The translations under genes and the position numbers were made by a program. DNA of 24,090 nucleotides from a virus (Duplodnaviria > Caudoviricetes): the IMG/VR virus record IMGVR_UViG_3300044999_000111, positions 1 through 24,090 of that record. One strand, 5' to 3'. Positions 1-23,089 of this stretch are shown here, in pieces. Positions within the stretch are counted from its first letter, which is position 1; every line of letters begins with the position of its first letter. The notes below the pieces were generated by a model. It saw only the letters and a list, made by a program, of their open reading frames with translations. It did no database searches and had not been told where the DNA came from.

Positions 1-291
1 GTCATGGTGCGTACCTATCTCAACAAGTTCTCCATGGCCGGGCCAAAAGTGCTCGACATCCGCGTGCACCCGAACATGCCGGCGGGTGCGCTGTTGATGA
101 CCTCGCGCACCTTGCCCTATCCGTTGTCGAACGTCGGCAACGTCGTGCAGGTGCGCACTCGGCAGGACTACTACCAGATCGAATGGCCGCCGCGGGCGCG
201 CCGTTACGAGACCGGCGTCTACGCCGACGAGGTGCTGCAGCACTATTTCCCGCCGTCCATGGCGGTGATTGCGAATATCGCGGCGGGGTAG
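1..291 (+). CDS. Major capsid protein, C-terminal part (5' end lies outside the window)
   Basis: Frame open from base 1 and ending ...RQDYYQIEWP...YETGVYADEVLQHYFPPSMAVIANIAAG*, which resembles HK97-fold capsid C-termini. Lies upstream of the neck genes. The window cannot show whether this copy is full length. Confidence 0.7.
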   Translation, partial: VMVRTYLNKFSMAGPKVLDIRVHPNMPAGALLMTSRTLPYPLSNVGNVVQVRTRQDYYQIEWPPRARRYETGVYADEVLQHYFPPSMAVIANIAAG

Positions 292-327
292 TCCGCGTCG
301 CTCTCGCTCCGCTGCCCGCGTTCGCGG

Positions 328-400
328 TGCGCGGGCGTGACCCACGGCATCCATGTGGCTTTGTCGCTGCATGGATTGCCGGGGCCTGCCTGCAATGACG
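328..400. repeat. Degenerate palindromic REP-like element (copy 1)
   Basis: tgcgcgggcgtgacccacggcatccatg...catggattgccggggcctgcctgcaatgacg aligns with the better-conserved copy at 2073-2148. Confidence 0.65.
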
Positions 401-419
401 TGCTCACGAGATCAAGCAC

Positions 420-1040
420 ATGAAACCACCGCTGCCGCGCACCTTGAGCGCCGTGCCTCGATTGCCGCACGTGCAGCTTGAGATCGTCAATGCAATCCAT
501 ACGCTTGCTTCGCCTTCTGTCGACCAATCTGGTGGATCGCTAGACTCCACGGCACTAGACGCCAATTGCGCGTTGGCAAGGAGAATCTTCCGCTCCTCTC
601 TACGGGAGGAATTTTGTAAGGCAGGCTTCCACTCGGACCAGCCGCGCTGGCGGAGGGGGAGTGGACGAAGAAGCGGACGTTGGTCAGGGGGAGCTGGTAG
701 TCTCATTACGGATCAAGCCCATAGGCGGCTGCGCGGGGGTCACCACTACGTGCCAAAAGAAATCTTCGAGAATCTATATAAGAAAAATCAGCTAAGACCG
801 GAAACTCGAAAGGTTCTTGATGAAGCTATCACTGGGCGACTTCCGAAAGGCCTTCACAAGAACGACAAACCACACAGAGAATATACAAAGGCGGTTTTGG
901 GGCTGTGGCATCAATTCTTGGAAAGACACGGAATTCGGTCCGAAGACATGACGCCCGACCAAGCGCGAAAATTCATTCACGAGGTCCTTCACTCAAGCGA
1001 TCCAAGAATAAGCCTTTATAATGGTAGATTTCGGCGTTAA
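420..1040 (+). CDS. Polymorphic toxin 1 with C-terminal AHH/HNH-like nuclease domain
   Basis: First 32 aa are 23/32 identical to ORF 2169. Has a KAGFHSDQPR...SGRW motif, then a lower-GC C-terminal domain with GHHYVP...LHKNDKPHREYTKAV, matching the xHH...H-x(n)-H-x2-Y pattern of AHH-type His-Me nucleases. Overlaps or abuts a small downstream gene. Confidence 0.65.
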   Translation: MKPPLPRTLSAVPRLPHVQLEIVNAIHTLASPSVDQSGGSLDSTALDANCALARRIFRSSLREEFCKAGFHSDQPRWRRGSGRRSGRWSGGAGSLITDQAHRRLRGGHHYVPKEIFENLYKKNQLRPETRKVLDEAITGRLPKGLHKNDKPHREYTKAVLGLWHQFLERHGIRSEDMTPDQARKFIHEVLHSSDPRISLYNGRFRR

Positions 1041-1500
1041 AATGCATGCGGAATGGTCGGGTGCAATTATGGGGAAAAAAAAGCGAAGCGAGGAAGACGA
1101 GGATCGTCGCTATGACGAGCAATTCAATAACTTTCTGCTGCTTCGAGATCGAATAGAGAATCTTTTGGAGCAATATGGCCGTGCCGACTCATTGGCGGAG
1201 CTGGGCGACTTTTCCGCGCATTATCATTTCGTTCAATCAAATCAAGTAAAGGTATCTGTCGCGAATCTCGACCTATTTCAGCCATTTATTGTCTATCAGC
1301 TGCAGGATATCGTGAAGGAATTTCCGGGGTGGGAAATCGTATATGCCGTAACCCTCGACGATCATCTGAAGGACTGGCCCAATATGGGCTTGTATATTCG
1401 TGGTGATGAAATTATCGACACGTTGCAGCGGCAGTATTTTCCAAAAAAATATCAATGCATAGCATATGCGGGCAGTAGGCTTGGGAGAGAACCAGATTGA
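1021..1500 (+). CDS. Putative immunity protein for toxin 1 (start uncertain: 1021, 1042 or 1069)
   Basis: Small soluble ORF with an acidic N-terminal patch, AT-richer codons, coupled to the toxin 3' end. Family not recognised. Confidence 0.6.
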   Translation: MVDFGVKMHAEWSGAIMGKKKRSEEDEDRRYDEQFNNFLLLRDRIENLLEQYGRADSLAELGDFSAHYHFVQSNQVKVSVANLDLFQPFIVYQLQDIVKEFPGWEIVYAVTLDDHLKDWPNMGLYIRGDEIIDTLQRQYFPKKYQCIAYAGSRLGREPD

Positions 1501-1552
1501 AAGATCTCAATCCGGGCAGACTTCAGTACCGCGCTGAGAAGGAAACTCGCGC

Positions 1553-2029
1553 GCCGGCGTCGTCGTCGAGATCGACGCGGCGCTCAAGAACCGCTGGGAC
1601 AATTACCGGCTCTCGCCCGACACCATGTGGGTCGGCTCGCAGGTCGCCAACGACCTGTCGAAGAAGATCCTGGCCGGCAATGCCAATGCGGCGCAGCGCT
1701 TCGTGTTCGATGCCGACCAGGGCGCGCTCGGCGGCGGCGTCATGGTGCGTACCTATCTCAACAAGTTCTCCATGGCCGGGCCAAAAGTGCTCGACATCCG
1801 CGTGCATCCCAACATGCCCGCGGGCGCGCTGTTGATGACCTCGCGCACCTTGCCCTATCCGCTGTCGAACGTGGGCAACGTCGTGCAGGTGCGCACCCGG
1901 CAGGACTACTACCAGATCGAATGGCCGCCGCGGGCGCGCCGTTACGAGACCGGCGTCTATGCCGACGAGGTGCTGCAGCACTATTTCCCGCCGTCCATGG
2001 CGGTGATTGCGAATATTGCGGCGGGGTGA
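1553..2029 (+). pseudogene. 5'-truncated duplicate of the major capsid gene 3' end
   Basis: Frame reads AGVVVEIDAALKNRWDNYRLSPDTMWVG...IANIAAG*. In-frame TGA at 1535-1537, so there is no N-terminal part. Last 96 codons encode the same peptide as 1-288. Confidence 0.8.
1739..2029 (+). repeat. Direct repeat of 1-291 (offset 1738 nt)
   Basis: Codon-by-codon comparison gives 9 synonymous substitutions plus a TAG/TGA stop change and no amino-acid changes. Weaker similarity continues through the spacer and about 30 codons of the next ORF. Confidence 0.97.
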
Positions 2030-2072
2030 GTCTGATCCCGCTGTGATCCGTCCGACCGCGCGTCTTCACTTT

Positions 2073-2148
2073 GTCATGCGCGGGCTTGACCCGCGCATCC
2101 ATGCCGCCTCGCTGCCGCATGGATTGCCGGGTCAAACCCAGCAATGAC
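2073..2148. repeat. Palindromic REP-like element (GTCAT...ATGAC; CGTC-tagged type seen in Alphaproteobacteria)
   Basis: GTCATgcgcgggcttgacccgcgcatccatgc...gcatggattgccgggtcaaacccagcaATGAC: inverted termini with internal hairpins. Confidence 0.8.
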
Positions 2149-2168
2149 GCATTGCAAAGGTCAAACAC

Positions 2169-3290
2169 ATGAAGACACCGCTACCGCGCACCTTGAGTGC
2201 CGTGCCCCAGACATTGCACACGCAGCTCGAGATTGCCAAGGCGATCCGCACGCTTGCCGGGCCGGACCAAGATGAATTGTTGCGGCAGCGGCGCGTGGAG
2301 ATCGCGGCGATCCGCCGCGATTTGGAGACGCTGCCAGGAGAAATTCGTAAGGCCGGTGCAGAATGCTTGGCACTGGTGAAAGCGGGCCTGCGCGCGGCGC
2401 TGACAAAGACATATGACCCCGACCAGCCGCGGGCGCCGGCCGGCAGTTCCGACGGCGGGCGATGGAGGAGTGGGACGGGCAGCGAAGGGTCAAGCGATTT
2501 ACCGACGCTCCCCGGCGCCGGCGCGAGTGAATCTTCAGCGGGGCGCGTCCGATATGCGTCGCTGGAAAACCCGTCCCCCGGCACGCGGATCGATGCTGCA
2601 GGCCGCGCCGGGGCCGCGACGGGAAGTGCCCGCCTGCTCCCAGCGCCGCGTAATGACACGGTCATACCGGACATGCCGTATGCATCGGAATTCCCCGGTG
2701 GCAGGGCCGATTTGGTTTTCGACGACCCGGCCGGCTATCACGTCATTAGCGCGTACGAGATTCCCGACAATCATCCAAAGCATCCGGTGCCCGTTGTCGA
2801 CAGCTCGGGGCGTCAAATTGATGACGATCAGGGTAATTCGCTTCTGCGGCCGGATGACCTGACTCCGGAAAAATACGTTGAAGCGGGGATGGCTGCTCGT
2901 TCCTTGGCTGCGGAGATCCACCAATTCAATGAGCAGGCAGCGGCCGGCCTATTGGAGCCGAGCGCCATGGCGGGTCTGGCGGCGAAAATTGCTTCGCAAT
3001 TGGCTCCGTTCACTCATGGCGGCTCTTTGGATGCCGAACGCTTCGACTCATACTATGTTCGCGAATACCGTCACTACACGAGCATCGCTACGGGAATTTT
3101 CATGGCTGCGGCCGGCGTCAGCAGGGAGGATGCACTCGCATTTGCGGACTTTTACGCCTCACTTAAATCCAAATTTGGTTCCAGCGAAATGATGGATGAA
3201 TCTTACGTGCACTCGACCAAACAAGATATTGAGGATAATCTGAGGGGCTATGATCTATATGAATCCGGGCGCGTTCGATCCAAGCGATGA
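2169..3290 (+). CDS. Polymorphic toxin 2 with C-terminal helical domain, possibly Ntox44-like
   Basis: Leader shared with ORF 420 and a KTYDPDQPRAPAGSSDGGRW motif, then a Gly/Ser/Pro linker. C-terminus FTHGGSLDAER...YTSIATGIFMAAAG...DIEDNLRGYDLY loosely resembles the Ntox44 pattern. Next gene starts at the base after the stop. Confidence 0.6.
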   Translation: MKTPLPRTLSAVPQTLHTQLEIAKAIRTLAGPDQDELLRQRRVEIAAIRRDLETLPGEIRKAGAECLALVKAGLRAALTKTYDPDQPRAPAGSSDGGRWRSGTGSEGSSDLPTLPGAGASESSAGRVRYASLENPSPGTRIDAAGRAGAATGSARLLPAPRNDTVIPDMPYASEFPGGRADLVFDDPAGYHVISAYEIPDNHPKHPVPVVDSSGRQIDDDQGNSLLRPDDLTPEKYVEAGMAARSLAAEIHQFNEQAAAGLLEPSAMAGLAAKIASQLAPFTHGGSLDAERFDSYYVREYRHYTSIATGIFMAAAGVSREDALAFADFYASLKSKFGSSEMMDESYVHSTKQDIEDNLRGYDLYESGRVRSKR

Positions 3291-3845
3291 ATGAGGTTCG
3301 AAATGCAAGGCGAAGGTCGCGATCGAATCCTTTATTGGCCAGCCATCCTCGCCGTTGCGTTTCCGATAGCTTGTGTCCTCGTCTGGATCGGCCGGCTCAT
3401 TCTGCCGCCGATGGTGGCTTCAGCGATCCTCACGCTCTGGGCGGGTACGATCGTGCTGGCCGTTACCCTGTGCGCGGTATGGCTCTATGAGCAAGCTTGG
3501 CGCCGGCTGGTATCGACCCTCGTGTTGCCGATAAGCGTGATCGCCGTGATATTGTATCTTGACTTCGCTTGGCCTGGCGGCCAGAGGGCGGGCGACTACA
3601 TTCATCTTTTCGCTTCGTACCCTTATTACCTCGATGAAATATCGAAGCTGCCCGAGCCGAAATTTAACGTGTGGCGGTGGTCGGGCAGCACACCCTGCAA
3701 CACCGGGTTGGCCTATGATGAGGGTGATACGATAATGTCCGATGCGCTATCTGAGGACTGGAAGGAAAGAACGAAGAATCTTCGGCTCGACCTTCATGTC
3801 GAATCCCGCGCGTTCGGGCATTTTTATTTCGTCGACATCTGTTAG
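3291..3845 (+). CDS. Putative membrane-anchored immunity protein for toxin 2
   Basis: About three hydrophobic segments in the first ~95 aa, then a small soluble domain (GLAYDEGD...FGHFYFVDIC). ATG abuts the toxin TGA. Confidence 0.6.
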   Translation: MRFEMQGEGRDRILYWPAILAVAFPIACVLVWIGRLILPPMVASAILTLWAGTIVLAVTLCAVWLYEQAWRRLVSTLVLPISVIAVILYLDFAWPGGQRAGDYIHLFASYPYYLDEISKLPEPKFNVWRWSGSTPCNTGLAYDEGDTIMSDALSEDWKERTKNLRLDLHVESRAFGHFYFVDIC

Positions 3846-4052
3846 CGGGCGAAGCGCGACAATCCGCTGGCTCGGCTCGCAGACAATGAGATGACCGCGG
3901 TCGAGATGCAAGGCACATGCGGCCGCTGCCCGGTTATGCGTTCTTTTGATCGATCTTGACCAGCAGCCGGCCGGCAGCGTCGAGGCCGCTTGCGTGCTGA
4001 GCCCACGAGCTGTGTGAACCGGCGCGCTCACCTGAAAATCACGAGGTTTGCC

Positions 4053-4262
4053 ATGAAGCTGAAAGCGCCGGAAGGCGGCGGCGATCCTTGCGTCGCCGGC
4101 GTCGTTATTGCGCCGCGCGAGGGCGTCTATGAGGTCGAGGCCGAGATCGGCGCGCTGTTGATCGAGTGTTTTGGCTTCGTCGAAACCGGCGCCGAGCAGA
4201 AGCCCAAAGCCGCGCCGCGGCGCCCGCGGGCGGCCGCGAAAAAGACTGCGGCGGAGGATTGA
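4053..4262 (+). CDS. Small phage protein with basic tail, in the usual post-capsid position
   Basis: ATG 4053 preceded by GAGG; 69 aa MKLKAPEGGG...AAKKTAAED; stop 2 nt before the adaptor ATG. Confidence 0.65.
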   Translation: MKLKAPEGGGDPCVAGVVIAPREGVYEVEAEIGALLIECFGFVETGAEQKPKAAPRRPRAAAKKTAAED

Positions 4263-4264
4263 AA

Positions 4265-5095
4265 ATGGCCGCATCCGATCTCGCCACGCTCGCCGACGTC
4301 AAAACCTGGCTCGCCGGCTCGAGCGGCATCGGCTCGTCCGACGACGCGCTGATCTCGCGCCTGATCACCGATGTGAGCGGCGCCATCACCGCCTATCTCG
4401 GCCGGCCGTCGTTGACGCCGCGGCTGTTCATGGAGCGGCTCGACGGCAACGACAAGACGCGTTTGTTCCTGCGCCACTATCCGGTGCTACAAATCATCAC
4501 GTTGTTGATCGACACGGCCGTCGTGCCCGCGGCGGCGCCGGTCGGCATGCCGTCCGCCAAAGGCTATCTACTCGAATCCTGGGACGGCTTGCCGCCCGGC
4601 CGGCCGCAGGCGCTCGACGTGTTTCGCACGTTCTATCGCAAGGGCCGGCAGAACGTCGTGGTCGATTATTCGGCCGGCTATGCGGTGGAAAGCGAAGCCG
4701 CGAACGTGCCCACCTCGCCGGGGCCGTATAGCGTTGCGGCGGCGGCGCCGCTTGGGCCGTGGGCCAGCGATGCCGGCGTCACTTATGCCAACGGCGCTCC
4801 GCTTGTGGCGGTGGCGAGCAATCCGGCCGCAGGTGAATATGCGGTCGCGAACGGCGCGTACACGTTCGCCGCCGCCGATGCTGGCGCCGCCGTGCTGATC
4901 TCCTACGGCTTTATTCCGGCCGCGATCAACAACGCCTGCATCGAATGGGTGGCGGAGCGCTACCGCTACCGCACCCGCGTCGGTCAGAGCGCGCAGACCG
5001 TGCAAGGCCAGCAGACGGCGTCGTATAGCCTCAAGGATATTCCGGATTTCGTCCGCGCCTCGCTCGATCCCTATCGCAGCGTGGTGGGGGCGTGA
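4265..5095 (+). CDS. Head-tail adaptor/connector (HK97 gp6-like) with extra beta-rich insertion
   Basis: N-terminus LATLADVKTWL...DDALISRLI...ITAYLGR and C-terminus IPAAINNACIEWVAERYR...LDPYR are typical of gp6-like adaptors. ATG 4265 follows GGAGG. Confidence 0.8.
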   Translation: MAASDLATLADVKTWLAGSSGIGSSDDALISRLITDVSGAITAYLGRPSLTPRLFMERLDGNDKTRLFLRHYPVLQIITLLIDTAVVPAAAPVGMPSAKGYLLESWDGLPPGRPQALDVFRTFYRKGRQNVVVDYSAGYAVESEAANVPTSPGPYSVAAAAPLGPWASDAGVTYANGAPLVAVASNPAAGEYAVANGAYTFAAADAGAAVLISYGFIPAAINNACIEWVAERYRYRTRVGQSAQTVQGQQTASYSLKDIPDFVRASLDPYRSVVGA

Positions 5096-5568
5096 TGTTT
5101 CAGCTCGATCTGCGCGACGATTACAGCGCGAGCCTTGCCGGCATGCCCGACCGGGTGCGCCAGGCGCTTTCGAGCAAGGCCAACGTGCTCGCCATGGCGT
5201 TGGAAGCGAAGATCCAGCAAAAGCTTTCCGGCGGCGTGCTCAATACGCGAAGCGGCGCGCTGGCGAGCTCGATCGTCGCGACGGTCGACGAATCTTCGGC
5301 CGACGTCTCGGTCCGCATCGGCACATCCGGCGACGTCAAATACGCCGCGATCCAGGAATTCGGCGGCACCATCCCGCCGCACGAGATCGTGCCGGACAAG
5401 GCCAGGGCGCTGGCTTTCGTGGTGGGCGGCAAGCAGGTCTTCGCGGCGCGGGTGAACCTGCCGGCGGTGACGATGCCTGAGCGGTCTTATCTGCGCTCTT
5501 CGCTGGGGGAGATGGCGGAGGAGATTGTCGAGGGGTTGAGCGACGCTGTCATCGAAGCCGTCGACTAA
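5092..5568 (+). CDS. Neck/virion morphogenesis protein (HK97 gp10-like)
   Basis: Motifs RSGALASSI, YAAIQEFGG and MPERSYLR; overlaps the adaptor stop. Confidence 0.8.
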   Translation: MMFQLDLRDDYSASLAGMPDRVRQALSSKANVLAMALEAKIQQKLSGGVLNTRSGALASSIVATVDESSADVSVRIGTSGDVKYAAIQEFGGTIPPHEIVPDKARALAFVVGGKQVFAARVNLPAVTMPERSYLRSSLGEMAEEIVEGLSDAVIEAVD

Positions 5569-5626
5569 AGCTCAAGTAGATCTCGCCCAAACCGCTTTCC
5601 CTTTTGCACCGAATGGAGACGATCGC

Positions 5627-6677
5627 ATGCTCGAATTGCGAGGATTGCGCGCGTTTTCGCTTTCGGCGATCCGGGATGTCGAGGGCGTTTCGTTCGACGC
5701 GCAAGGAGTATTTGTGGGCGGCGTGCCACTGCTTAGGAGTGCCCATGTCGGAACTGAGCACAGCACATTGACCGTTCGACAGATTGGGGAGCTCAACGAC
5801 GAATTGACAACACGCTACCGGCTTCCGATCGACGCCTCATCAAAGCTCGGAGCGTTAGCATTGATCGCCAAGGCGCTTAGTCGCGGCGATCTCGCCATGG
5901 CCGCCATCGCCACCGTGCAGATGCAATTTCCCAATCCGCCCTGCTTGGCTAAAGGGGCGGAATCCGCTGACGAGCTTGAGCGTCGCGCTTTTGAGTTCCA
6001 TCGCAGCCACTTACTCAAGTCGAATTGGGACCCAGCGAAACATCCACGCGCCGGTATGCCTCCAAATCCCGGTTGGTTTGTGCCGGCGATAGCGGCACCC
6101 GAAGCTCCCAACGTCGTGCCGGTTATGATGGATCCCAGGCATAAGCCTTGGGAAAGACCGGAGTTTGGCGGTGGTGGCGGGGCGGGCGGACCACCTGAGC
6201 TTCCTTTTCCGCGAGGGTTGCCCCGGGTTTCGCCTCCAAGCGAACCCTTATCGACACCAGAAGCTCCAGCGAAGGCGCCGTCCGGGCCGCCCGCAACAGT
6301 TGAACCGCAACCAAAGCTGCCGTTTCCGGGCGGGCTACCGCCAAAACTGGCGCCATACACAGGAGGCAAGACTTCTGGAATTCTTGATATCCCAAACCAT
6401 TCTCCGATTGAACTGGAGAGCGGATATGATGGCCCAGCAGCAAATATGCCGCCGAAGAGTTCTGGATTTGACTTGATTACGAAGTCACACGTAGAAGGCC
6501 ACGCTGCCGCTATTATGCGCGATCAAGAACTCATGCAGGGTACCCTTTACATAAATAATCCGGACATAATGTGATACCTGCACTGAATTGCTTCCGAAGA
6601 TGCTTCCACCGGGCGCCACATTAGACGTTATTCTCCCCAGCGGTAAGGTCCTAAGATTTAGAGGTATCGGTCCATGA
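5627..6677 (+). pseudogene. Polymorphic toxin 3: DddA/SCP1.201-family cytidine deaminase, split by a +1 frameshift at about 6568
   Basis: Reads LAPYTGGKTSG...SHVEGHAAAIMR...LYINNPDI, then a stop at 6572-6574. Removing one A at 6568/6569 gives CDTCTELLPKMLPPGATLDVILPSGKVLRFRGIGP*, ending at 6677 with an ATGA overlap on the next gene. The HVE and NN...CxxC...LLP motifs parallel DddA. Confidence 0.88.
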
Positions 6678-7072
6678 AGATCAAATATGCCAATCAGCAG
6701 GATAAATTAGACATAATGAATGGCGAGGTTATTGCAGACGAGGCATCGCTCGTCGACTTACTCAACAGAAGGCGAAGCAACGCTCCGTTCTTCGGACGAT
6801 TCTCAGGCGACAACGGTTTTGAGCTTATGATCGGGATGGGCGGTGAGATTGGTTGCGTCCAATACAGTCGCACTGACGGCGATCCGCCGTACCTCGTCGC
6901 CGTTCCACCTCAACCACGTTTGACGAGCGGGTATGTCGAGTTTCGCACGGCAAATACTCCCACTCCGGTGCCGGCACGAAACATATTGACCTTCGACGAA
7001 TTGAAAAAGATAGCGTTGCATTTTCTGGAAACGGGCGAGCGTAGCGACGCTTTTTCTTGGGACTCCATATAA
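6674..7072 (+). CDS. Imm1-family (DddI-like) immunity protein
   Basis: 132 aa with LMIGMGGEIGCVQY and the C-terminal ALHFLETGERSDAFSW typical of Imm1; directly follows the deaminase. Confidence 0.82.
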   Translation: MKIKYANQQDKLDIMNGEVIADEASLVDLLNRRRSNAPFFGRFSGDNGFELMIGMGGEIGCVQYSRTDGDPPYLVAVPPQPRLTSGYVEFRTANTPTPVPARNILTFDELKKIALHFLETGERSDAFSWDSI

Positions 7073-7149
7073 CAATTATCCTGCCCTGAAATTCACGGTT
7101 TAAGGCTGCGGCTACGGGGTAATGGAACGGCAATTCACGAGGAAACGCG

Positions 7150-7596
7150 ATGACCACGGTCACCCGCGAACAGATTTCCGTTGCCTTCTTCGATCTCATC
7201 AAAGGCGCGGCGAGTTTCACGGCGAAGAGCCGGCGCTTCGTGCATTGGGATCAGGTCAACGAGACGCAGATGCCGTTTCTGACCATGCTCAAGACCGGCG
7301 AGGTGCGCGGCCGGCAGAGCGAGGGTTTGCCGACGCTCACTATCAATGCCCACGTGTTCGTCTATCTCTCAGCCGGGATGGATCCGGAGGATACGCCGGA
7401 TACCGCCATGAATGCGCTGCTTGATGCCGTCGATGCCGCGGTCGTCCCGAGCGGGGCCGACGCGGTGAACGGCAACAAACAAACGCTCGGCGGCCTCGTC
7501 GCTCATTGTTATTCGTTCGGCCCGGTGTTCATCGATACCGGCGACGTCGACGGCAAGGCGGTCGCCGCGATTCCGTTCCAGATTTTGGTGCCGTAA
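7150..7596 (+). CDS. Probable tail terminator/completion protein
   Basis: 148 aa immediately before the tail tube; TREQI...P.L...LLDAVDAA...TLGGLV pattern; GAGG RBS. Confidence 0.7.
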   Translation: MTTVTREQISVAFFDLIKGAASFTAKSRRFVHWDQVNETQMPFLTMLKTGEVRGRQSEGLPTLTINAHVFVYLSAGMDPEDTPDTAMNALLDAVDAAVVPSGADAVNGNKQTLGGLVAHCYSFGPVFIDTGDVDGKAVAAIPFQILVP

Positions 7597-7606
7597 CCGC
7601 ACCGCA

Positions 7607-7699
7607 AATGGCGAGCGGCGAATAGCGTGTAGGTGAGGGGTTTTGTTCTCTCCAAGCGCCATTCGCCATTCGTCATTCGCTTTTCGCCCATCCCCCATT
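7607..7699. repeat. Heptamer tandem inverted repeat (hairpin)
   Basis: Left arm AATGGCG AGCGGCG AATAGCG; right arm CGCCATT CGCCATT CGTCATT CGCTTTT CGCCCAT. CGCCATT is the reverse complement of AATGGCG. Confidence 0.8.
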
Positions 7700-7727
7700 T
7701 CCAAAACTCTGACCAGGAGACACATCC

Positions 7728-8468
7728 ATGACCCAATACGCCTTCGGCTCCGGCACGCTGATCGGCAAGCGCACCGATGTCGCCAATACGCCGCCCGCGC
7801 TGCTCGGCACGCTGGAATCGGTTTCGCTCGATTTCGACCGCAAGGTCGAGTTCCTGCTCGGCCAGTACAATATGCCGGTTGCGGCCGGCGGCGGCGAGTT
7901 CAAGATCGCCGGCAAGGCGAAATACGCGCGCCTGCAGGCGAACCAGATCAACAATCTGTTCCTCGGCCAGACCTTGGCCGCCAACAGCATGCTGGAAATG
8001 ACCACGGGCGAGACCGACACGGTCGCATCAGGCGCCGTGACCGTCGTCAACAGCGGCACCTTCGCCGAGGATTACGGCGTGTTCTATGCCACAAGCGGCG
8101 CGCAACTCGCGCCGGTGGCGTCATCGCCGGCGCAGGGTCAATACAGCGTGGCGGGCGGCATCTACAGCTTTAATACCGCCGACAACGGCGCGGCGGTGCT
8201 GATCTATTACACTTACAATGTCTCCTCCGGGAACAAGATCAGCCTCACCAACCAGCTCACTGGCCCAATGCCGACGTTTGAAATCTCGTTGAAGGAAACC
8301 TTCAACTATTTCGGCGTTGCCAAGGATTTGGTGGTGAAGCTCAACGCCTGCGTCTCGCCGAAGCTATCGCTGCCGTTCGCCAACCAGAAATTCACCGTCG
8401 CCGAGTTCGATTTCCAGGCCATTGCGGACGCGTCGAACAATATCGGCAGCATCAGCTTGAGCGAATAG
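7728..8468 (+). CDS. Major tail (tube) protein
   Basis: 246 aa, beta-rich (YAFGSGTL...SVSLDF...EFDFQAIAD), AGGAG RBS, located before the chaperones and tape measure. Confidence 0.82.
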   Translation: MTQYAFGSGTLIGKRTDVANTPPALLGTLESVSLDFDRKVEFLLGQYNMPVAAGGGEFKIAGKAKYARLQANQINNLFLGQTLAANSMLEMTTGETDTVASGAVTVVNSGTFAEDYGVFYATSGAQLAPVASSPAQGQYSVAGGIYSFNTADNGAAVLIYYTYNVSSGNKISLTNQLTGPMPTFEISLKETFNYFGVAKDLVVKLNACVSPKLSLPFANQKFTVAEFDFQAIADASNNIGSISLSE

Positions 8469-8479
8469 GGAGATGCCGC

Positions 8480-8872
8480 ATGAGCCTCGAGCGTGACGAA
8501 TCCATCGATCTTGCGACGGCGCGCCCGGTGCGGCTCGCCGGCCGGGATTTCCACGTAGCGCCGCTGTCGCTGCGGCAGATCCTCGCCATTGCCGATTACG
8601 TGCCGAAACTGTCGGGCATCGGCATGGACAATCTGTCCGGCGAGCGGCTTGCGCCGCTGGCCGAGGTGCTGTGGCACGGCCTGCGCCGCGCCCATCCGCG
8701 ACTGACCCATGACGAGTTTTTCGATCTGCCTATCACCATCGCCGAGCTCGTCGCGGCATTGCCGGTCGTCATCGAGCAGGCCGGCGGCAGAAAGGTCGAT
8801 GCCGTGGGGGAAATTTCGGCGACGAGCGCTTTGACGCCTTCGACTGGCGGGCCCTCGTCGCCGACCTCGTGA
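8480..8872 (+). CDS. Tail assembly chaperone (lambda gpG equivalent)
   Basis: 130 aa between tube and tape measure, with GGGGGAA near its 3' end. Confidence 0.75.
   Translation: MSLERDESIDLATARPVRLAGRDFHVAPLSLRQILAIADYVPKLSGIGMDNLSGERLAPLAEVLWHGLRRAHPRLTHDEFFDLPITIAELVAALPVVIEQAGGRKVDAVGEISATSALTPSTGGPSSPTS
8806..8812 (+). promoter_or_regulatory. Putative programmed -1 ribosomal frameshift site GGGGGAA
   Basis: Codons GTG GGG GAA. The -1 frame is open from here (GNFGDERFDAFDWRALVADLVIELNW...) to the stop at 9069. Confidence 0.75.
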
Positions 8873-9069
8873 TCGAGCTCAACTGGACGCGCGATCAGGT
8901 TTTGGACCAGGTCGACGTTTTCTTTCTCGAAGACCTGCATCGCGCCTGGGCGGATTGTCCGTCGCTGCGGCGGCTGTTCGCTGCGTATCTCGGCCATAAG
9001 CCGCCGGCGAAATTGTCGAAGAACTATCACGACCTGCTCGCCATGTTCCCGACTGGAACCATCAAGTGA
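8806..9069 (+). CDS. Tail assembly chaperone frameshift extension (gpGT equivalent)
   Basis: The track ORF 8869-9069 is in the -1 frame relative to 8480 and extends upstream without a stop to the slippery site. Confidence 0.7.
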   Translation, partial: GGNFGDERFDAFDWRALVADLVIELNWTRDQVLDQVDVFFLEDLHRAWADCPSLRRLFAAYLGHKPPAKLSKNYHDLLAMFPTGTIK

Positions 9070-9087
9070 ACCGCCGAGGCAATCCCC

Positions 9088-10308
9088 ATGGCCGACGATA
9101 ATCGGGTTGAGATTCAATTCGGCGCCAATACCGACGAAGCGTTGGCCGGCATTGCGCAAGTGAAAGACTCGCTCCTGGGGTTGACTGCGCCGATCAAGGA
9201 TGTCGGCGCCTCGTTCGACCGCCTGGGTGAAACGTTCGGAGCGGCATTTCCGGTGGAGCGGATCGCCGAGTCCGTGAGGGGGGTGGCGGATTTTGGTGCG
9301 GCGGCGCAGCGCGCCGCGTCGCAAACGAAGGCGATAGGCAACGAAATCAAGCTGCTGCAACAGGGCCTCGCGCAAAAAAAGATCCTCATCGATGCCGAGG
9401 CCAAACAATATCAGATAACGCAAGATCAGAAATACGCGCTGCTGGAAGCAGCGACGGAAAAGGAATTCGAGGCGCAGCGCGCTGTCCTGCAAAATGCGAT
9501 GATGGCCGACAACGCCACTTTGGCGAGCAAGCAGGCTCTTAAGGCCAAGATCGCTTTGCTTGAGGCAAAGCACACGACAGACATGCTCAAGCTCGATGAG
9601 CAATCGATCGCCGCCCAACAGGCACTCTGGACCGGCTATCTTTCGAACGTGACCGGGGCGTTCAATTCGCAACTTCGCGGCCTCCTTGAAGGAACCACCA
9701 CGTGGAAAAAGGCGTCGGTCAAGATCTTGGAGGACTTGACCGTCAAGTTCATCGAGACGGCCGAGTCAACGGTCGTCAAATGGCTGGCGGCTGAAATAGC
9801 CAAGACGACAGCGACAACAAGCGGTACCGCGGCCCGGGTGGCGGCCGAGCAGGGTGCGGCGAGCGCCGGCATTTTCACGACCATAACCGACGCGCTTAAG
9901 TCTATTTTCGCCTCAGGCGGCAAGACCGCGGCCGAAGTGTCGGCCGCAGTCGCGCCCGAGGCCGGTCCCGCTGCGCCGGCGATCGGCCTGGCGGCGGGTG
10001 GTGCGATCATAGCCGGCGCTACCGGATTTATCGCCAGCGCGGACGTCGGCACCGACTACGTCGTGCGCAGCGGCCTCGCTGTCATCCATCAGGGCGAAAA
10101 GATCATTCCGTCGGCGAAGACGTCGGGACCGTTCACCGGCGCCGGCATGGCCGGCACCGTTCACGCCCCGGTGAGCGTCAATATCTCGGCCTTGGATTCG
10201 CGAAGCGTCGAACGCTTCTTCCACGACAACGCCAAACACATGATCCGCGCCATCAACAACGGCATCAAGAGCGGCGCCCATCTCGGGCTGCGCGGCGCGC
10301 GGGCATGA
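9088..10308 (+). CDS. Tape measure protein (short, 406 aa)
   Basis: Ala-rich helical sequence following the chaperones; C-terminal DVGTDYV...AVIHQGEKIIP and VNISALDSRS motifs typical of TMP ends. Confidence 0.85.
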   Translation: MADDNRVEIQFGANTDEALAGIAQVKDSLLGLTAPIKDVGASFDRLGETFGAAFPVERIAESVRGVADFGAAAQRAASQTKAIGNEIKLLQQGLAQKKILIDAEAKQYQITQDQKYALLEAATEKEFEAQRAVLQNAMMADNATLASKQALKAKIALLEAKHTTDMLKLDEQSIAAQQALWTGYLSNVTGAFNSQLRGLLEGTTTWKKASVKILEDLTVKFIETAESTVVKWLAAEIAKTTATTSGTAARVAAEQGAASAGIFTTITDALKSIFASGGKTAAEVSAAVAPEAGPAAPAIGLAAGGAIIAGATGFIASADVGTDYVVRSGLAVIHQGEKIIPSAKTSGPFTGAGMAGTVHAPVSVNISALDSRSVERFFHDNAKHMIRAINNGIKSGAHLGLRGARA

Positions 10309-10323
10309 CAGGAGTGAAACACC

Positions 10324-10944
10324 ATGACGACGCCGCCTTCGCTCCCGACATTGCCGGGGCTGGCCTGGTCGCGCCGCAAGAAGCCCGCGTTCAACACGCG
10401 CATCGCCTCGCATGCGTCGGGCCGCGAGGTGCGCGTCGCGCTGATGAACTATCCGCTTTACGAGTTCGAGGCGACCTATGGCCTCACGTCGTCGGCGAGT
10501 GGATTTGCCGGGCTCGGCGCGTCGAGCCTGCAAAACCTGATGGGCTTTTTCCTGCAGCTGCAGGGCCAGTTCGGCACGTTTCTCTATACCGATCCGGACG
10601 ATAATTCCGTGACCGGCCAAGGCATCGGCATCGGCGACGGCGCGACGACCGCCTTCACCTTCGCCCGCGCGCTCGGCGGCTTCGCCGAACCGGTCGGCTG
10701 GGTCACCGCGGTCTCGCATGTCTATCTCAATGGCACGCCGCAATCGGGCGGCAGCTATGGCCTGACGATGCCGAACACGCTGACCTTCACGGCGCCGCCC
10801 GGCGCCGGCGTCGTGGTGTCCACCGACTTCTCTTTTGCCTTCCAGTGCCGGTTCGTCGACGACCAGATGGAATTCGAGGAATTCATGTCGAACCTGTGGA
10901 AGCTCGAAAGCATGAAATTCCGCAGCGTGAAGAGCGGGCAGTAA
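10324..10944 (+). CDS. DUF2460-family distal tail protein (RcGTA g12-like)
   Basis: PAFNTRI...SGREVR...FF...GQFGTFLYTDPDD...GIGDGATTAF...FQCRF motifs. Confidence 0.85.
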   Translation: MTTPPSLPTLPGLAWSRRKKPAFNTRIASHASGREVRVALMNYPLYEFEATYGLTSSASGFAGLGASSLQNLMGFFLQLQGQFGTFLYTDPDDNSVTGQGIGIGDGATTAFTFARALGGFAEPVGWVTAVSHVYLNGTPQSGGSYGLTMPNTLTFTAPPGAGVVVSTDFSFAFQCRFVDDQMEFEEFMSNLWKLESMKFRSVKSGQ

Positions 10945-10945
10945 G

Positions 10946-11833
10946 ATGAAGCCCGCACCAACTGCGCTCATCTCGTATCTCAACGCGGCGCGCACCAGCG
11001 CGGATGCGCAGTTGCTGATGGCAGACGCATTTTTGTTCACGCTGCAAGGCGGCGCAACGCTCGCCTATACCAACATCGACGTGACTTTCACCTATGCGGG
11101 CGTCACCTATCTGGCGAATTCCATCCTGGTCGACGGCCTCAAATACAAGGCCGCGGTCGGGCTCGAGGCCGACCAGCAACAGATCACCGTCGCGGCGCGC
11201 TCGACCGATACCATCGCCGGCGGGGCGCCGTTTCTGCAGGCTTTGCGCGACGGGTCGTTCGACGGCTGCGAGATCGTGCGCTATCGGGTGTTTTTCTCCG
11301 ACCGGCTGGGCGGCATGGCGATCGGCGCGGCGATGCTGTTCAAGGGACGGCTCGGCAATATCGATGAGATCGGCCGCACTTCGGCAAAGCTGACTGTCAA
11401 TTCCGATCTGGTGCTGCTCGACATCGACATGCCGCGCAACATGTACCAGCCGACCTGCCTGCACACGCTTTACGATGGCGGGTGCAAGCTCAGCAAGACG
11501 TCGACATCGCCGTCGTTCAGCAGTAGCGGAACGGTCGGCGCCGGATCGACGGCCTCGATCATCTATTGGCCCGGCGCCAATGCCAGTTTTGCGCAAGGCA
11601 CGATCACGTTCACGTTCGGCGTTCTCGCCGGCGTGACGGCGACGGTCGGTTCGGTGGTGAACGGCTCCTCGTTGAACCTCATTAATCCGCTGCAGAGCGT
11701 GCCGGCGCCCGGCGACGGCTTCACGGTTTATTTCGGCTGCGATCACACGCTGACGACGTGTCAGGCGAAGTTCAACAATCTGGTCAATTTTCGCGGCTTT
11801 CCCTACGTGCCGCCGCCACAAATGGCGATATAG
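10946..11833 (+). CDS. DUF2163/BR0599-family baseplate hub protein (RcGTA g13-like)
   Basis: YQPTCLHTLYDGGC and GCDHTLTTCQAKFNNLVNFRGFPYVP Cys cluster. Confidence 0.9.
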   Translation: MKPAPTALISYLNAARTSADAQLLMADAFLFTLQGGATLAYTNIDVTFTYAGVTYLANSILVDGLKYKAAVGLEADQQQITVAARSTDTIAGGAPFLQALRDGSFDGCEIVRYRVFFSDRLGGMAIGAAMLFKGRLGNIDEIGRTSAKLTVNSDLVLLDIDMPRNMYQPTCLHTLYDGGCKLSKTSTSPSFSSSGTVGAGSTASIIYWPGANASFAQGTITFTFGVLAGVTATVGSVVNGSSLNLINPLQSVPAPGDGFTVYFGCDHTLTTCQAKFNNLVNFRGFPYVPPPQMAI

Positions 11834-11917
11834 CAGAGGACGGACGACAGATGACGGACGACGGAAAGCAGATGGACGATGATTATCCGTCGCCCGTCGT
11901 CTGCCTTCCGTCGTCCG
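11834..11917. repeat. Heptamer tandem inverted repeat overlapping the NlpC/P60 start
   Basis: Left arm CAGAGGA CGGACGA CAGATGA CGGACGA CGGAAAG CAGATGG; right arm TTATCCG TCGCCCG TCGTCTG CCTTCCG TCGTCCG. TCGTCCG is the reverse complement of CGGACGA. Confidence 0.8.
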
Positions 11918-12375
11918 GCTCGCAACGCGCGGCCGTTGTCGCCGCGGCGCGGTCGTGGATCGGCACGCCCTACCACAATTGCGCCGATATCAAGGGTGTC
12001 GGCGTCGATTGCGGCATGCTGCTGGTGCGAATCTTCGTCGACCTGAATCTGTGCCCACCGTTCGATCCGCGGCCTTATCCGGTGGACTGGCATCTGCATC
12101 GCAGCGAAGAGCGCTATCTCGGCTTCATCTTCGATCGCGGCGCCGAAGTGGTGCAGCCGCTGCCGGGCGACGTCATGGTGTTCCGTTATGGCCGTTGTTA
12201 CTCGCACGGCGGCATCGTCACCGCGGTAGCGCCGTTGCGCATGGTTCACGCCTACCACCAGGCGGGAATGGTCATCGAGGACGAAATTTTGCGCAACGCC
12301 GTTCTTGCCGATCCGGTGCGTAAGCCGCTTTTTTTCAGCATCTGGGCCAAAAAAAGCGGCAACAAGAAATCATGA
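11851..12375 (+). CDS. NlpC/P60 tail-associated peptidase (RcGTA g14-like); start uncertain (11851 or 11872)
   Basis: AARSWIGTPY...GVDCGML...PGDVMVF...SHGGI...MVHA, carrying the catalytic Cys/His/His. Confidence 0.9.
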   Translation: MTDDGKQMDDDYPSPVVCLPSSGSQRAAVVAAARSWIGTPYHNCADIKGVGVDCGMLLVRIFVDLNLCPPFDPRPYPVDWHLHRSEERYLGFIFDRGAEVVQPLPGDVMVFRYGRCYSHGGIVTAVAPLRMVHAYHQAGMVIEDEILRNAVLADPVRKPLFFSIWAKKSGNKKS

Positions 12376-12384
12376 GCGCAGGCC

Positions 12385-15300
12385 ATGAGCATATTCCGCA
12401 GCGGCGGATCACAACCAGCATCGACGCCGGACTATACCGGCCTGCAAATCCAGACCGCGGTCTCGGCGCTGCCGATCCCGATCGTGTGGGGAACCAGCAA
12501 GCTCGCGCCGAACGTCATCTGGTATGCCAACTTCAAGGCGATCGCGGCCGGTAGCAGCGGCGGCGGCGGAAAAGGACTCTTCAACAGCGGCAGCGGCAAC
12601 AGCAACACCGGCCAATACGACTATAAGGCCGACGTCATCCTGGCGATCTGCGAAGGGCCGATCACGGGCATCGGGGATGTTTGGCGCGGACAGTCGACGA
12701 CGTCGCTCGGCGCGCTCGGGCTGTCGCTGTTTCTCGGCGGCACGCCGCAACTTGTCTGGTCCTATCTCTCCACGCCGGCCGCCACCAGTTCGATCGTGGG
12801 GATCCTCGCCGATATCCAGCCGACGCTCGGCGAAGCGGCGTTATTGGGTCAGGTCGCGCTGACCTATCAGGGCACAGCTTATGTTGCCGCTGCGCAATAC
12901 GACCTGTCCAGCAGTGCGACGCTCGACAACCACAATTTCGAGGTTTTGGGATTTCTCTGGGCCACCGGCCATGGGCAGACGCCCTATACCGACGTTCCGG
13001 GCACGACGGCAATTTTCGTCGATGCCGATCCGGCGCAGGTCGTCTCCGACTTCCTGACCAATCCGCAATATGGCGTCGGCTTCCCGGCGGCTTCGATCGA
13101 CACGACGTCGCTGATCGGCTCCGGCGGCGACGCGTCGTACCAGACCTATTGCCGCGCGGTCGGCCTGGCGTTCAGCCCGGCGCTCACCGACGCCGAGGCG
13201 GCATCGGGCATTCTCAATCGCTGGCTGCAGCTGACCAATACGGCTGCCGTCTGGTCGGGCGGCCTGCTGCGCTTCATTCCCTATGGCGACACGGCGGTGA
13301 CCGGCAACGGCGTGACGTTTAATCCGAACGTGACGCCGATCTACGATCTCGGCGACGACGACTACATCGTCGAGAACAATGCCGACCCGCTCACGGTGTC
13401 GCGCACCGATCCTTATCAGGCCTACAACGTCTGGCGCGTGGAATGCGCCGATCGCAACAATGCCTACAACCTCACCCCGGTCGAAGCGCGCGATCAGAAC
13501 GCCATCGAGCTGACCAGCCAAAACCTCGGCGGCGGCCGCGGCGAGCGCATTGCGCCAACCGTCACGGCGCACGAAATCTGCGACACCGGCGTGGCCCTGA
13601 TCACGGCGCAGCTGATGCTGCAGCGCGCGGTCTATATCCGCAACACCTACAAGTTCCGCCTGTCGTGGGAATATTGCCTGCTCGATCCCATGGACCTGGT
13701 GACGGTCACCGACACTGTGCTCGGCCTCAACAAGACGCCGATCCGCATCACCAATATCGAGGAGAACGAGAACGGCTATCTGGAGATCACCGCGGAAGAG
13801 TTTCCACTCGGCTATGCAACGGCGACAAAATACGCGACGACCTCGGTCATCAATGTGCCGAACGACCGCAACGCCGATCCGGGTTCGGTCGCCGACGTCC
13901 TTATCTTCGAGCCGACCGACCAGCTGGGCGGCGGCCTCAAGATCATGGCGGGCGCGTGCAGCGTTAATCCGCTGTGGGGCGGCTGCAATATCTGGCTGTC
14001 CTATCAACAGGATGGCAACTACAGCCAAATCGGCACGGTCACGGCCGGCGCCCGCATCGGCGTCATCACCGCTGACCTGCCAGCCGTCGGCGTCAGCGTC
14101 ACCGGGCAGACCATCGACCAGGTCCATACGCTGGCGGTCGATCTGACTGAAAGCGCGGGCGTGCTGTCGTCCGGCACCCAAGCCGATGCCACGGCGCTGA
14201 ACAACCGCTGCTATGTCGGCGGCGAGATTATCTCCTACGAAACTGCGACGCTCACGGCCGCGAACAAGTACAATCTCAGTTATCTGGTGCGCGGCGCCTA
14301 TGGCACGGAAGACCAGATCGTCGACCATCCGACCGGTACCAAATTCGCCCGCATCGATGGCGCGTTTTTCTCCTACCCCTACGATCAAAGCCGCATCGGC
14401 GACACGGTCTATCTGAAGTTCCAGAGCTTCAACGTCTACGGCGGCGGCACCCAATCGCTCGCCGACTGCACCGCGTTCGCTTACACGATCACCGGAGCGG
14501 CGCTGGCTTCCCCACTGCCCGACGTCAGCGACCTCTACACCAACTATGAGGCCGGATTCCAGAAGATCTACTGGGACGAGATCGATGATTTTCGCAACGG
14601 CATTCTCTACGAAGTCCGCCAGGGCGATGCCTGGGATAACGCTCAGTTCATCCGCTCGCAGGCGCATCCGCCGTTCATCGCGCAAGGCAACGGCACCTTC
14701 CTGATCAAAGCGCGCTGTCAGCCGGTCGCGGGGCTGACGGTCTATAGCGAGAATGCGTCGGCGATCGAGATTTCCGGTAACCAGCTTTCGCTCAACCTGC
14801 TCGCCGGCTTCGACGAAAAGGCGACCGGCTGGACCGGCACGTTCCAGAACGGCATCGGCGTCGATGCCGGAAACTTGAGGCTTGGCGGCGCCGGGAATAT
14901 CCTCGGCGCCAATCCGCTGCTGCAATCGGCGGTGACCGACGCTGCGACCACAAGCGGCGACGTTTTGTCGTTCGGCTATCTGCCGTCGGATGTTGCGGTC
15001 GGCATGGCGGTCGCCGATACCACGACGGCCGGCGTCATCCCGGCGCTCGCGACCGTCACTGCGATCAACTACAACGCCATCGATTATGGCCCAGTCGTGG
15101 GCACGGTGGCAGCAGACTTCGATTACGGTGCGGTTACAGCCTCGGCCACGACCGATGTCGATTATGGTGCCATCACCGGCACGTTGGCTACGGTCACCAT
15201 CAGCGCGCCGGTTGCCGGCGTTCTGTCCGGCGACACCATCGTGTTCTCAATTCCGGATGTGCTCGACTTCGGCGGCGTGATCACCGATACGTCGGTCTAC

Positions 15301-15903
15301 TACACCATCCCGGCGGCGCACATCGTCAATGCCGGATCGGTGGTGCAGGCCTCGGTGAACGCGTCGACGCAGATCCAGGGCGTGCCGGTCGGCCAGAATG
15401 TTCTTGCCGACGCCGACGTCCTGACCGATCCCGATATTCTCGGCTCGGCCTCGACCCAATATGTCGACGGCTGGATCGAAATCGCGCTGTCGCAGGACGG
15501 TTCGACATTTGGGGCGTGGCAAAAGTTCGTGCCCGGCGTGTTTCCGGCGATGGCATGGAATTTTCGGCTGGCTCTGCAATCGAGCGATCCAAACACCATC
15601 GCCGAGGCATTGGCGTTCAATTTCACGGTGCAGCTGCCGTCGCGCATCGATCATTATCAGCAACAAACGGTGCCAAGTGGCGGCCTCACCATCGCCTTCC
15701 AGCGCGACGGCACCACGGCGCCGGCGGCGTTTAACGGCGGGCCGGGCAGCGCGGATCTGCCCTATGTGAGCGTGTCGTGGCAGCCGACGGCGGGGGATCA
15801 ATACAGCATCAGCGCCTTGTCGCTGTCGCACCTGACAATTCGTTTCAGCAACGCCGGCTTTGTCGAGCGTGACAACGTCAACATAACGGTCGAGGGATTT
15901 TGA
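12385..15903 (+). CDS. Large tail tip/host-specificity protein (gpJ/RcGTA g15-like)
   Basis: 1172 aa with PIPIVWG...NVIW, AICEGPI, YQGTAY, DADPA, LDPMDLVTV and LVRGAYGT motifs; follows NlpC/P60. Confidence 0.85.
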   Translation: MSIFRSGGSQPASTPDYTGLQIQTAVSALPIPIVWGTSKLAPNVIWYANFKAIAAGSSGGGGKGLFNSGSGNSNTGQYDYKADVILAICEGPITGIGDVWRGQSTTSLGALGLSLFLGGTPQLVWSYLSTPAATSSIVGILADIQPTLGEAALLGQVALTYQGTAYVAAAQYDLSSSATLDNHNFEVLGFLWATGHGQTPYTDVPGTTAIFVDADPAQVVSDFLTNPQYGVGFPAASIDTTSLIGSGGDASYQTYCRAVGLAFSPALTDAEAASGILNRWLQLTNTAAVWSGGLLRFIPYGDTAVTGNGVTFNPNVTPIYDLGDDDYIVENNADPLTVSRTDPYQAYNVWRVECADRNNAYNLTPVEARDQNAIELTSQNLGGGRGERIAPTVTAHEICDTGVALITAQLMLQRAVYIRNTYKFRLSWEYCLLDPMDLVTVTDTVLGLNKTPIRITNIEENENGYLEITAEEFPLGYATATKYATTSVINVPNDRNADPGSVADVLIFEPTDQLGGGLKIMAGACSVNPLWGGCNIWLSYQQDGNYSQIGTVTAGARIGVITADLPAVGVSVTGQTIDQVHTLAVDLTESAGVLSSGTQADATALNNRCYVGGEIISYETATLTAANKYNLSYLVRGAYGTEDQIVDHPTGTKFARIDGAFFSYPYDQSRIGDTVYLKFQSFNVYGGGTQSLADCTAFAYTITGAALASPLPDVSDLYTNYEAGFQKIYWDEIDDFRNGILYEVRQGDAWDNAQFIRSQAHPPFIAQGNGTFLIKARCQPVAGLTVYSENASAIEISGNQLSLNLLAGFDEKATGWTGTFQNGIGVDAGNLRLGGAGNILGANPLLQSAVTDAATTSGDVLSFGYLPSDVAVGMAVADTTTAGVIPALATVTAINYNAIDYGPVVGTVAADFDYGAVTASATTDVDYGAITGTLATVTISAPVAGVLSGDTIVFSIPDVLDFGGVITDTSVYYTIPAAHIVNAGSVVQASVNASTQIQGVPVGQNVLADADVLTDPDILGSASTQYVDGWIEIALSQDGSTFGAWQKFVPGVFPAMAWNFRLALQSSDPNTIAEALAFNFTVQLPSRIDHYQQQTVPSGGLTIAFQRDGTTAPAAFNGGPGSADLPYVSVSWQPTAGDQYSISALSLSHLTIRFSNAGFVERDNVNITVEGF

Positions 15904-15904
15904 C

Positions 15905-17581: not shown

Positions 17582-17590
17582 GGCACCGCG

Positions 17591-19566: not shown

Positions 19567-19599
19567 CGGCTCAAGGCGATTACGAGAGCGAATGACCAG

Positions 19600-20831: not shown

Positions 20832-20898
20832 CCGCTGTTAGCTCACTGGCCACTATCCGCGCGTTGCCCGCTGTCAAATCATGTTATGAACGGCGGCG

Positions 20899-23004: not shown

Positions 23005-23037
23005 CGACGTTCTAAGTCAATCCATCCTTGCCGTTTA

Positions 23038-23056
23038 ACGCATCGACCTGATGCGT
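23038..23056. other. Short intergenic inverted repeat
   Basis: ACGCATC-gacct-GATGCGT between the acyltransferase and the lysis genes. No adjacent U-tract; function unknown. Confidence 0.35.
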
Positions 23057-23089
23057 CCGAAACATTTGTAAAAACAAAGAGGTAACTGC

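Follow-up and report, generated by a model that had tools for sequence, protein, structure and literature searches.

The locus described here raises the question whether three predicted toxin genes among phage head genes encode the cargo of a particle, and whether this particle still serves a phage. It is found in the virus-collection record IMGVR_UViG_3300044999_000111, which was analyzed over its entire length of 24 kb (positions 1–24,090; hereafter the window). Three two-gene inserts (cassettes), all on the plus strand, lie in its head-neck region among the capsid-position, connector, adaptor, neck, and terminator-position genes; each consists of a gene for a putative toxin (cargo) and a gene for a putative immunity protein (partner). 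A first-pass annotation had proposed that the toxins are loaded into heads and injected, and that the particle may be a domesticated weapon rather than only a phage. With a probability of about 60%, we regard the element, which is found beside the gene aspS in related soil Alphaproteobacteria of one genus, as a host-retained, non-replicating particle factory; its tagged toxins would enter the head, be trimmed by the prohead protease, and reach neighboring cells by injection. This reading is built on the observed anatomy of the cassettes, their swapping at fixed sites, the coupling of toxin tips to partners, a tag consisting of a lysine (Lys) and a motif, fusions of this tag to portals and proteases, and a fixed single-copy locus.

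The three cargo proteins are composed of an N-terminal leader, a Lys site followed by the motif, and a C-terminal tip. The Lys-preceded consensus K-Y-x-P-D-Q-P-R-x-P-x-G-x-x-x-G-G-x-W is common to all three and the first two also have a common leader, which corrects the earlier description of unrelated domains. To collect relatives, the adaptor was used as query, which retrieved 59 viral loci and 37 from genomes; most of the latter bear the title Xanthobacteraceae or uncultured Alphaproteobacteria. The motif profile gave 138 matches in 63 of 97 sequences, all of them on the coding strand; it was built and iterated on the same loci, so that the positives are partly circular while the strand control is not. 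A Lys was present 5–9 residues ahead of the motif core in 130 of 136 cases (background 0.165), and a hydrophobic-x-Lys pattern ahead of the motif in 128 of 136 (background 0.046). The capsid-position protein has a similar Lys site at residues 49–51, directly ahead of the start of its PHROG match, and the neighboring protease is XkdF/S78-like; we infer that the protease cleaves after the Lys. Stand-alone cargo carries either of two leader families (48 proteins each), A at the capsid and protease sites and B at the neck site. Leader A is helical by structure prediction, and no similarity was found between the leaders and the core proteins of the cluster. At the portal site, 20 of 30 motif open reading frames (ORFs) are in frame with portal homology.

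Variation of the cassettes at fixed positions, which had been considered earlier, was observed in the homologous loci, where 118 tips of at least 60 amino acids (aa) formed 25 clusters distributed over the sites after the portal, protease, capsid, and neck genes. By site, the motif matches were located after neck (49), capsid (46), portal (30), protease (6), and connector (1), with 6 unplaced. Site occupancy was determined for 71 deduplicated loci with an adaptor identity of at least 60%. The capsid-connector site (n = 49) was empty in 16 loci, occupied by a motif ORF in 29, and by a different insert in 4; for the neck site (n = 58), the respective numbers were 9, 37, and 12. Duplicated 3′ pieces were present in 19 loci at the capsid-connector site and in 11 at the neck site. 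In runs X1 and X2 (one study), cassettes 1 and 2 match those of the window at over 99.5%, and the neck site holds about 1.75 kb of other sequence. Of 101 pairs, 91 belonged to clusters with at least two members; the partner cluster tracks that of the tip in 87 of these 91, compared with a mean of 33 and a maximum of 42 after shuffling. Six of 41 representative tips were above the cut-off of a toxin family and two more had weak AHH matches; DddA, RNase A-like, Ntox37, and barnase with barstar were among the families found, and most tip clusters are without any family match. Conserved N-terminal parts with variable C-terminal tips, by which polymorphic toxin systems are recognized, were thus found, and the tip clusters, family matches, and partner coupling bear out the polymorphic toxin/immunity architecture assigned at first. 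Neutralization of the toxins by their partners is predicted.

Inserts without the motif also recur in relatives (L010, L012, L013, L015, and others), measuring about 1.2 kb after the tail tube gene, 1.4–1.6 kb after the adaptor gene, and 1.9–2.8 kb after the tape measure gene, where the insert includes a second Dit-like gene. In L060 (8416–9660, minus strand), an unrelated gene for 414 aa lies in opposite orientation within the capsid-connector interval. One candidate for a small terminase turned out to be a partner gene.

In cassette 1, the cargo gene (420–1040) encodes leader A, the Lys site and motif (about 600–700), and a predicted GHH-type HNH-like nuclease tip, in which GGHHxVP is invariant and a later His is conserved. 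The tip has no Pfam match, and its profile did not match that of the common HNH tip significantly; atlas matches to AHH/SHH/GHH2 clusters scored 0.92–0.94. It is probably an HNH-type nuclease, and it occurs on portal proteins as well (3 of 4 long matches). Partner 1 (1021–1500), a predicted immunity protein of no known family, belongs to a conserved family and comes after the tip-1 class in 9 of 10 cases. In cassette 2, the cargo gene (2169–3290) encodes the helical leader A (residues 16–81), the Lys site and motif (about 2400–2470), a disordered linker, and a folded, mostly helical tip (predicted local distance difference test, pLDDT, about 90 across residues 190–365 of the model). For this tip no Pfam match was obtained; a Foldseek search with the model returned nothing at an E-value of 0.001 and no PDB match, and a wider fold search only coiled-coil matches to the leader. 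Ntox44 is present in 24–26% of the members of its top atlas matches, and its motifs fit the Ntox44 signature in the consulted sections of PMC3482391 only loosely. Tip 2 is predicted to be a folded helical domain, with an Ntox44-like lead. A likeness to Lipocone domains is tentative; Ntox44 is not mentioned in the consulted sections of PMC12419801. Partner 2 (3291–3845) was found after the tip-2 class in 16 of 16 cases and has a hydrophobic N-terminal half (stretches read from the alignment); it is a predicted membrane-bound immunity protein, which hints at a target of tip 2 in the membrane or periplasm. Both ORFs are coupled to the next one as described before, the first pair overlapping by 20 nucleotides and the second abutting.

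A third pair is likewise present after the neck gene; its cargo (5627–6677) is, however, not the single ORF first described. This gene encodes leader B, the Lys site and motif (about 6015–6085), and a DddA-like deaminase tip, and has a frameshift near 6566–6572, with which the ORF ends at 6574 and the CxxC part (6570–6677) stands in the next frame, so that HxE and CxxC are not in one chain. With an X at the break, the tip matched PF14428 (E = 8e-12) and aligned to DddA chains in the PDB (E = 3e-5); in 14 of 21 relatives, HVEG and CxxC are in a single frame. The frameshift may be a sequencing error, and no read run spans the break. Partner 3 (6674–7072) is an Imm1 immunity protein (PF14430, E = 3e-9, over the cut-off) without a sequence match in the PDB. 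Only the third tip has a toxin-family match above the Pfam cut-off; tips 1 and 2 are leads. As the first-pass annotation had stated, MuF, Rhs, CdiA, PAAR, or VgrG matches were absent from the three cargo proteins in Pfam and PHROG scans, and tips and partner genes are AT-richer, with a guanine-cytosine (GC) content of 0.46–0.56 compared with 0.58–0.64 for the leaders and 0.60–0.67 for the structural genes.

For the chromosomal context, related genomes of one genus and its family were analyzed; most of these assemblies are incomplete, and the sets overlap with the adaptor-retrieved loci. Of 36 motif matches in five related genomes, 33 lie within the cluster or just past it. The upstream order is ppk-ppx-rnd-aspS, a divergent CI-like repressor gene, genes for a GcrA-like protein and DUF6362, an unknown ORF, a cold-shock gene, and the large terminase gene. 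Between aspS and terminase, no integration or replication family was found among the genes scanned in three genomes (genes taken from a crude script). A tyrosine integrase was not found at the cluster edges in 5 of 5 genomes, with the right edge partly scanned and serine recombinases not searched; the same scan revealed one short tyrosine integrase inside an array. The capsid was matched in 25 of 121 genus genomes (two fragments), never in two full copies, and in 3 of 151 family genomes, and DUF6362 in 46 of the 121 genus genomes. According to hand tallies of genomes with both genes on one contig, the DUF6362 regulator lies at most 10 kb downstream of aspS in 38 of 39 and the capsid 8–30 kb downstream in 12 of 12. 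The ratio of nonsynonymous to synonymous substitutions (dN/dS) was 0.15 for the capsid and 0.14 for aspS (18 genomes, dS about 0.45). The capsid tree has 5 of 14 splits in common with that of the unlinked rpoB, with a random maximum of 4 and 4 shared by aspS (17 genomes), and capsid and rpoB distances are correlated (Mantel 0.48, p = 0.0007). The fixed locus, vertical inheritance, and purifying selection of gene transfer agents (GTAs) are hence found in the related genomes, where fixed locus, lack of an integrase match, and host-congruent tree support the earlier suggestion of a domesticated weapon rather than only a phage.

In L098 (7755–10906), the regulatory block comprises the CI-like repressor, the GcrA-like protein, DUF6362, and the cold-shock gene. 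Further cassette sites were seen downstream of the cold-shock gene and of the terminase gene; in L102, the 3′ end of the cold-shock gene is duplicated. About 41 kb lie between aspS and the regulators in G210:C42:30381–71948, possibly because another element occupies this site as well.

The tag is not restricted to this family. A viral scan for the motif gave 274 confirmed matches, and 62 loci were kept, of which 61 were new and 16 of these outside the window's family. In the 14 of these 16 that were scanned, the motif is fused to portals or prohead proteases or lies among head, neck, tail, or lysis genes, a context that is biased because the scanned collection is virus-selected. Fusions in unrelated head modules involve portals in L187, L201, L231, and L239 and prohead proteases in L196 and L219, and one L196 protein consists of Peptidase_S78 and a CdiA-type RNase. 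A library-wide search with the motif profile matched 4,665 protein clusters. At least two motif copies, with a median spacing of 249 aa, occur in 105 of 143 new top library matches, and a Lys stands ahead of 227 of 323 copies in top matches. Among 29 top matches scanned, 21 had Pfam matches, mostly ADP-ribosyltransferases (ARTs), GNAT, Nudix, and zeta toxin, with ARTs in 16, Acb1 in one, and MuF in one. These repeated-tag proteins are similar to polyvalent proteins, for which packaging into the head is predicted in the consulted sections of PMC5512222 and PMC9503650. Short motif queries (36–40 residues) against cultured phage records returned nothing credible, a weak test at such length.

Beside these results, tandem protease-tag-toxin fusions were noted in the unrelated HK97-type head module of L196, L219, and L220. 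Giant proteins (P0246–P0275 and others) contain 4–10 Lys-plus-motif copies. Each copy is followed by the domain of another enzyme (ART, GNAT, Nudix, zeta, Acb1, topoisomerase IB), an arrangement reminiscent of cargo polyproteins that are cleaved.

For the proposed particle factory, we infer the following course, of which only the gene anatomy was observed. Derepression would switch on one late operon, with which the cargo is expressed. Leaders that co-assemble with the prohead, or portal and protease fusions, would carry the cargo inside, where the prohead protease would cut after the Lys and make the motif the new N-terminus. The motif would then act as ejection handle, so that tag-led toxins exit with or before the DNA, and kin cells holding the matching partner would survive. 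Duplicated 3′ gene ends would allow recombination to stack or swap cassettes without harm to the structural gene.

Several results weigh against this reading. Tips are shorter than 100 aa in 35 of 137 closed motif ORFs, some perhaps through assembly indels, and the third toxin of the window is broken, so that the window does not encode the three working toxins first assumed. Partner 2 looks membrane-bound from its sequence, a poor fit to cytoplasmic injection. The capsid has the patchy distribution given above for genus and family, two capsid-aspS distance tests were not significant (p = 0.09 and p = 0.07), and no small terminase was identified in the cluster. Internal deletions were found in 8 of 10 regulator-positive, capsid-negative stretches, while 2 stop at contig ends. 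Because the window stops short of aspS, its own locus is likely but deduced from relatives with an adaptor identity of 93–97%. Finally, besides 21 of 25 capsid-positive genomes (85 matches), the motif is present in 38 of 96 capsid-negative ones (65 matches), all of these counts being lower bounds; and of the off-locus motif ORFs in 20 stretches chosen by us, 19 of 22 have the leader B family and none has leader A.

These off-locus cassettes retain leader, Lys, motif, and often a nuclease tip (6 of 19 scanned tips are CDI-type nucleases). No cluster gene lies within 3 kb, and 68 of 119 neighboring frames were scanned without a head or tail match. They may be trans-loaded cargo or relics, or leader family B may be head-independent. 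A right-end cassette of about 480 aa with an Imm52 partner (L112:13384–15653, L127, L131, L135, L140) persists where the structural genes are deleted and was also found at other chromosomal positions. The loading and injection claimed by the first-pass annotation have gained circumstantial support from the motif on portals and prohead proteases, and the claim is weakened by the cassettes away from head genes.

The toxins could instead be real without being head cargo, acting as bacteriocin-like proteins released freely at lysis or as intracellular addiction or abortive modules, with the head region as a tolerant, well-expressed site. The leader-B-family cassettes persisting off-locus and in capsid-negative genomes, the right-end cassette that outlives structural-gene deletion, and the membrane-bound look of partner 2 would all fit. 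Against this, portals, prohead proteases, and polyvalent proteins carry the same tag as a covalent part of their chains, domains for receptor binding or translocation were not seen, and the 25 capsid-positive genomes are richer in motif matches (85) than the 96 capsid-negative ones (65); we hold this explanation to be unlikely, if the best of the alternatives. Quite improbable is a slowly decaying cryptic prophage without a working particle today, in which the cassettes are self-maintaining insertions: frequent internal deletions and loss, broken tips, the lack of a small terminase match, and the one RNA run examined, which gave no support for cargo expression, speak for decay, whereas purifying selection on the capsid equals that on aspS and whole cassettes are exchanged between near-identical strains. 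Ordinary active temperate phages integrating near aspS, with tagged effectors that aid infection as in MuF-toxin phages, are the least probable: the adaptor in 59 viral-contig loci, the retained CI-like repressor, the use of the tag by other phages, and serine recombinases not searched genome-wide leave them some room, but no integrase or replication family lies between aspS and terminase (three genomes), the edges are without tyrosine integrase, the capsid never occurs in two full copies, its tree is host-congruent, and the viral-collection locus L214 itself contains aspS.

According to Pfam and PHROG scans, the gene order of the window starts at the 3′ end of the capsid-position gene (1–291, plus strand; unnamed PHROG 13692, E = 8e-34) and closes with an endolysin. 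As the contig begins inside this gene, 1–291 is the true gene end or a further duplicate; in relatives the gene sits between protease and connector, and the label "capsid" is assigned by position and by the unnamed PHROG family. A spacer with a hairpin-like repeat follows (300–419; repeat families D2, D7, D19), with a second copy at 2070–2168. The copy at 2070–2150 had a contig depth of 1,200–2,200 compared with about 7 and is therefore a high-copy genomic repeat; this palindromic repeat (2070–2150, 300–400) stands directly after the capsid stop codon. An Rfam search of positions 1–8500 gave no match, and promoter and terminator counts were at chance level. Between the first two cassettes lies a duplicated 3′ third of the capsid-position gene as array arm (1551–2029, plus strand; capsid residues 367–524), with 97% identity between 1–289 and 1739–2027. 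Cassettes 1 and 2, each preceded by a capsid 3′-end copy, a similar spacer, and a similar leader, therefore form a tandem array. An assembly artefact was rejected as explanation, since 19 of 49 deduplicated loci have such duplicates and contigs of runs X1 and X2 span the junction. The plus strand further encodes connector, head-tail adaptor, and neck (4053–5568; PHROG 748, 442, 5/26; PF05135, PF05069) and the remaining element (7150–24090) with terminator-position gene, tail tube, tape measure, tail tip, fibres, O-acetyltransferase, lytic transglycosylase, and GH25 endolysin. Several fibre-like genes, an Mtd_N protein, and an O-antigen acetyltransferase lie in 15905–23004, a block that varies between relatives.

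Of the known systems, MuF polymorphic toxins of temperate phages also combine a variable C-terminal toxin with an adjacent immunity gene in the head module, and head loading and injection were proposed for them (PMC5576092, PMC3482391). The independence from MuF noted at first was confirmed: the cargo of the window has no MuF domain (no head-morphogenesis match at a Pfam E of 0.05 or a PHROG E of 0.01, the MuF3/MuF4 profiles of PMC5576092 not being included). Unlike MuF toxins, the cassettes use several insertion sites and not one after the portal, have stand-alone leaders and a Lys-preceded tag, form tandem arrays with duplicated structural-gene 3′ ends, and reside at a fixed, vertically inherited locus; those of the window follow capsid and neck, and the portal site of relatives mostly holds fusions. 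Polyvalent proteins, in which effectors are fused to portal, MuF, or capsid-processing peptidase, are predicted to be packaged (PMC5512222, PMC9503650), and effector fusions to portal or protease are already published (PMC9503650). The tag repeats ahead of domains of such proteins; in contrast to them, the cassettes described here provide single toxins with cognate partners, aimed at killing. Literature searches and the consulted sections of PMC5512222 and PMC9503650 gave no description of tag, arrays, or locus, while supplementary alignments could hold the tag. GTAs such as the Caulobacter GTA (PMC11150451) are host-retained head-tail clusters without replication genes; in the present cluster, none were seen in the three genomes scanned. 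The present cluster differs in its capsid family, in its regulators (CI-like, GcrA-like, DUF6362, no DUF6456 match), and in having its own lysis genes and predicted toxins. The families DUF2460, BR0599, Phage-tail_3, and Rcc01698 are common to the cluster and GTAs, with the tail-tip families of RcGTA as the reference.

In T4, internal proteins have a capsid-targeting leader that is cut off by the prohead protease, and the polymorphic cargo is injected with the DNA. Here, the leaders comprise 60–130 aa, the cut is predicted after Lys, the conserved tag comes next, and the cargo is predicted to be toxic and has an immunity partner. Tailocins and extracellular contractile injection systems are domesticated phage machinery for conflict that is released by lysis; the present cluster, in contrast, retains terminase, portal, protease, and capsid and has no sheath match.

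If the proposed reading is true, toxins are delivered via a host-retained phage head. A phage-derived secretion system in prophage remnants was already a speculation in PMC3482391, and for this idea from 2012 no fixed-locus example was found in the literature consulted. The tag makes testable how effectors are selected for loading into, and ejection from, the heads of tailed phages, a long-open question, and provides a handle of 20 residues for finding virion-delivered effectors across the 4,665 protein clusters. At somewhat less than even odds, we tentatively suggest that the domesticated headed particle would be a multi-toxin kin-recognition weapon of soil Xanthobacteraceae, and that the Lys-plus-DQPR/HPR tag would be a general, as yet undescribed cut-and-eject signal through which the head delivers thousands of proteins of tailed phages, ranging from fusions with portals to polyvalent polyproteins with anti-defence roles.

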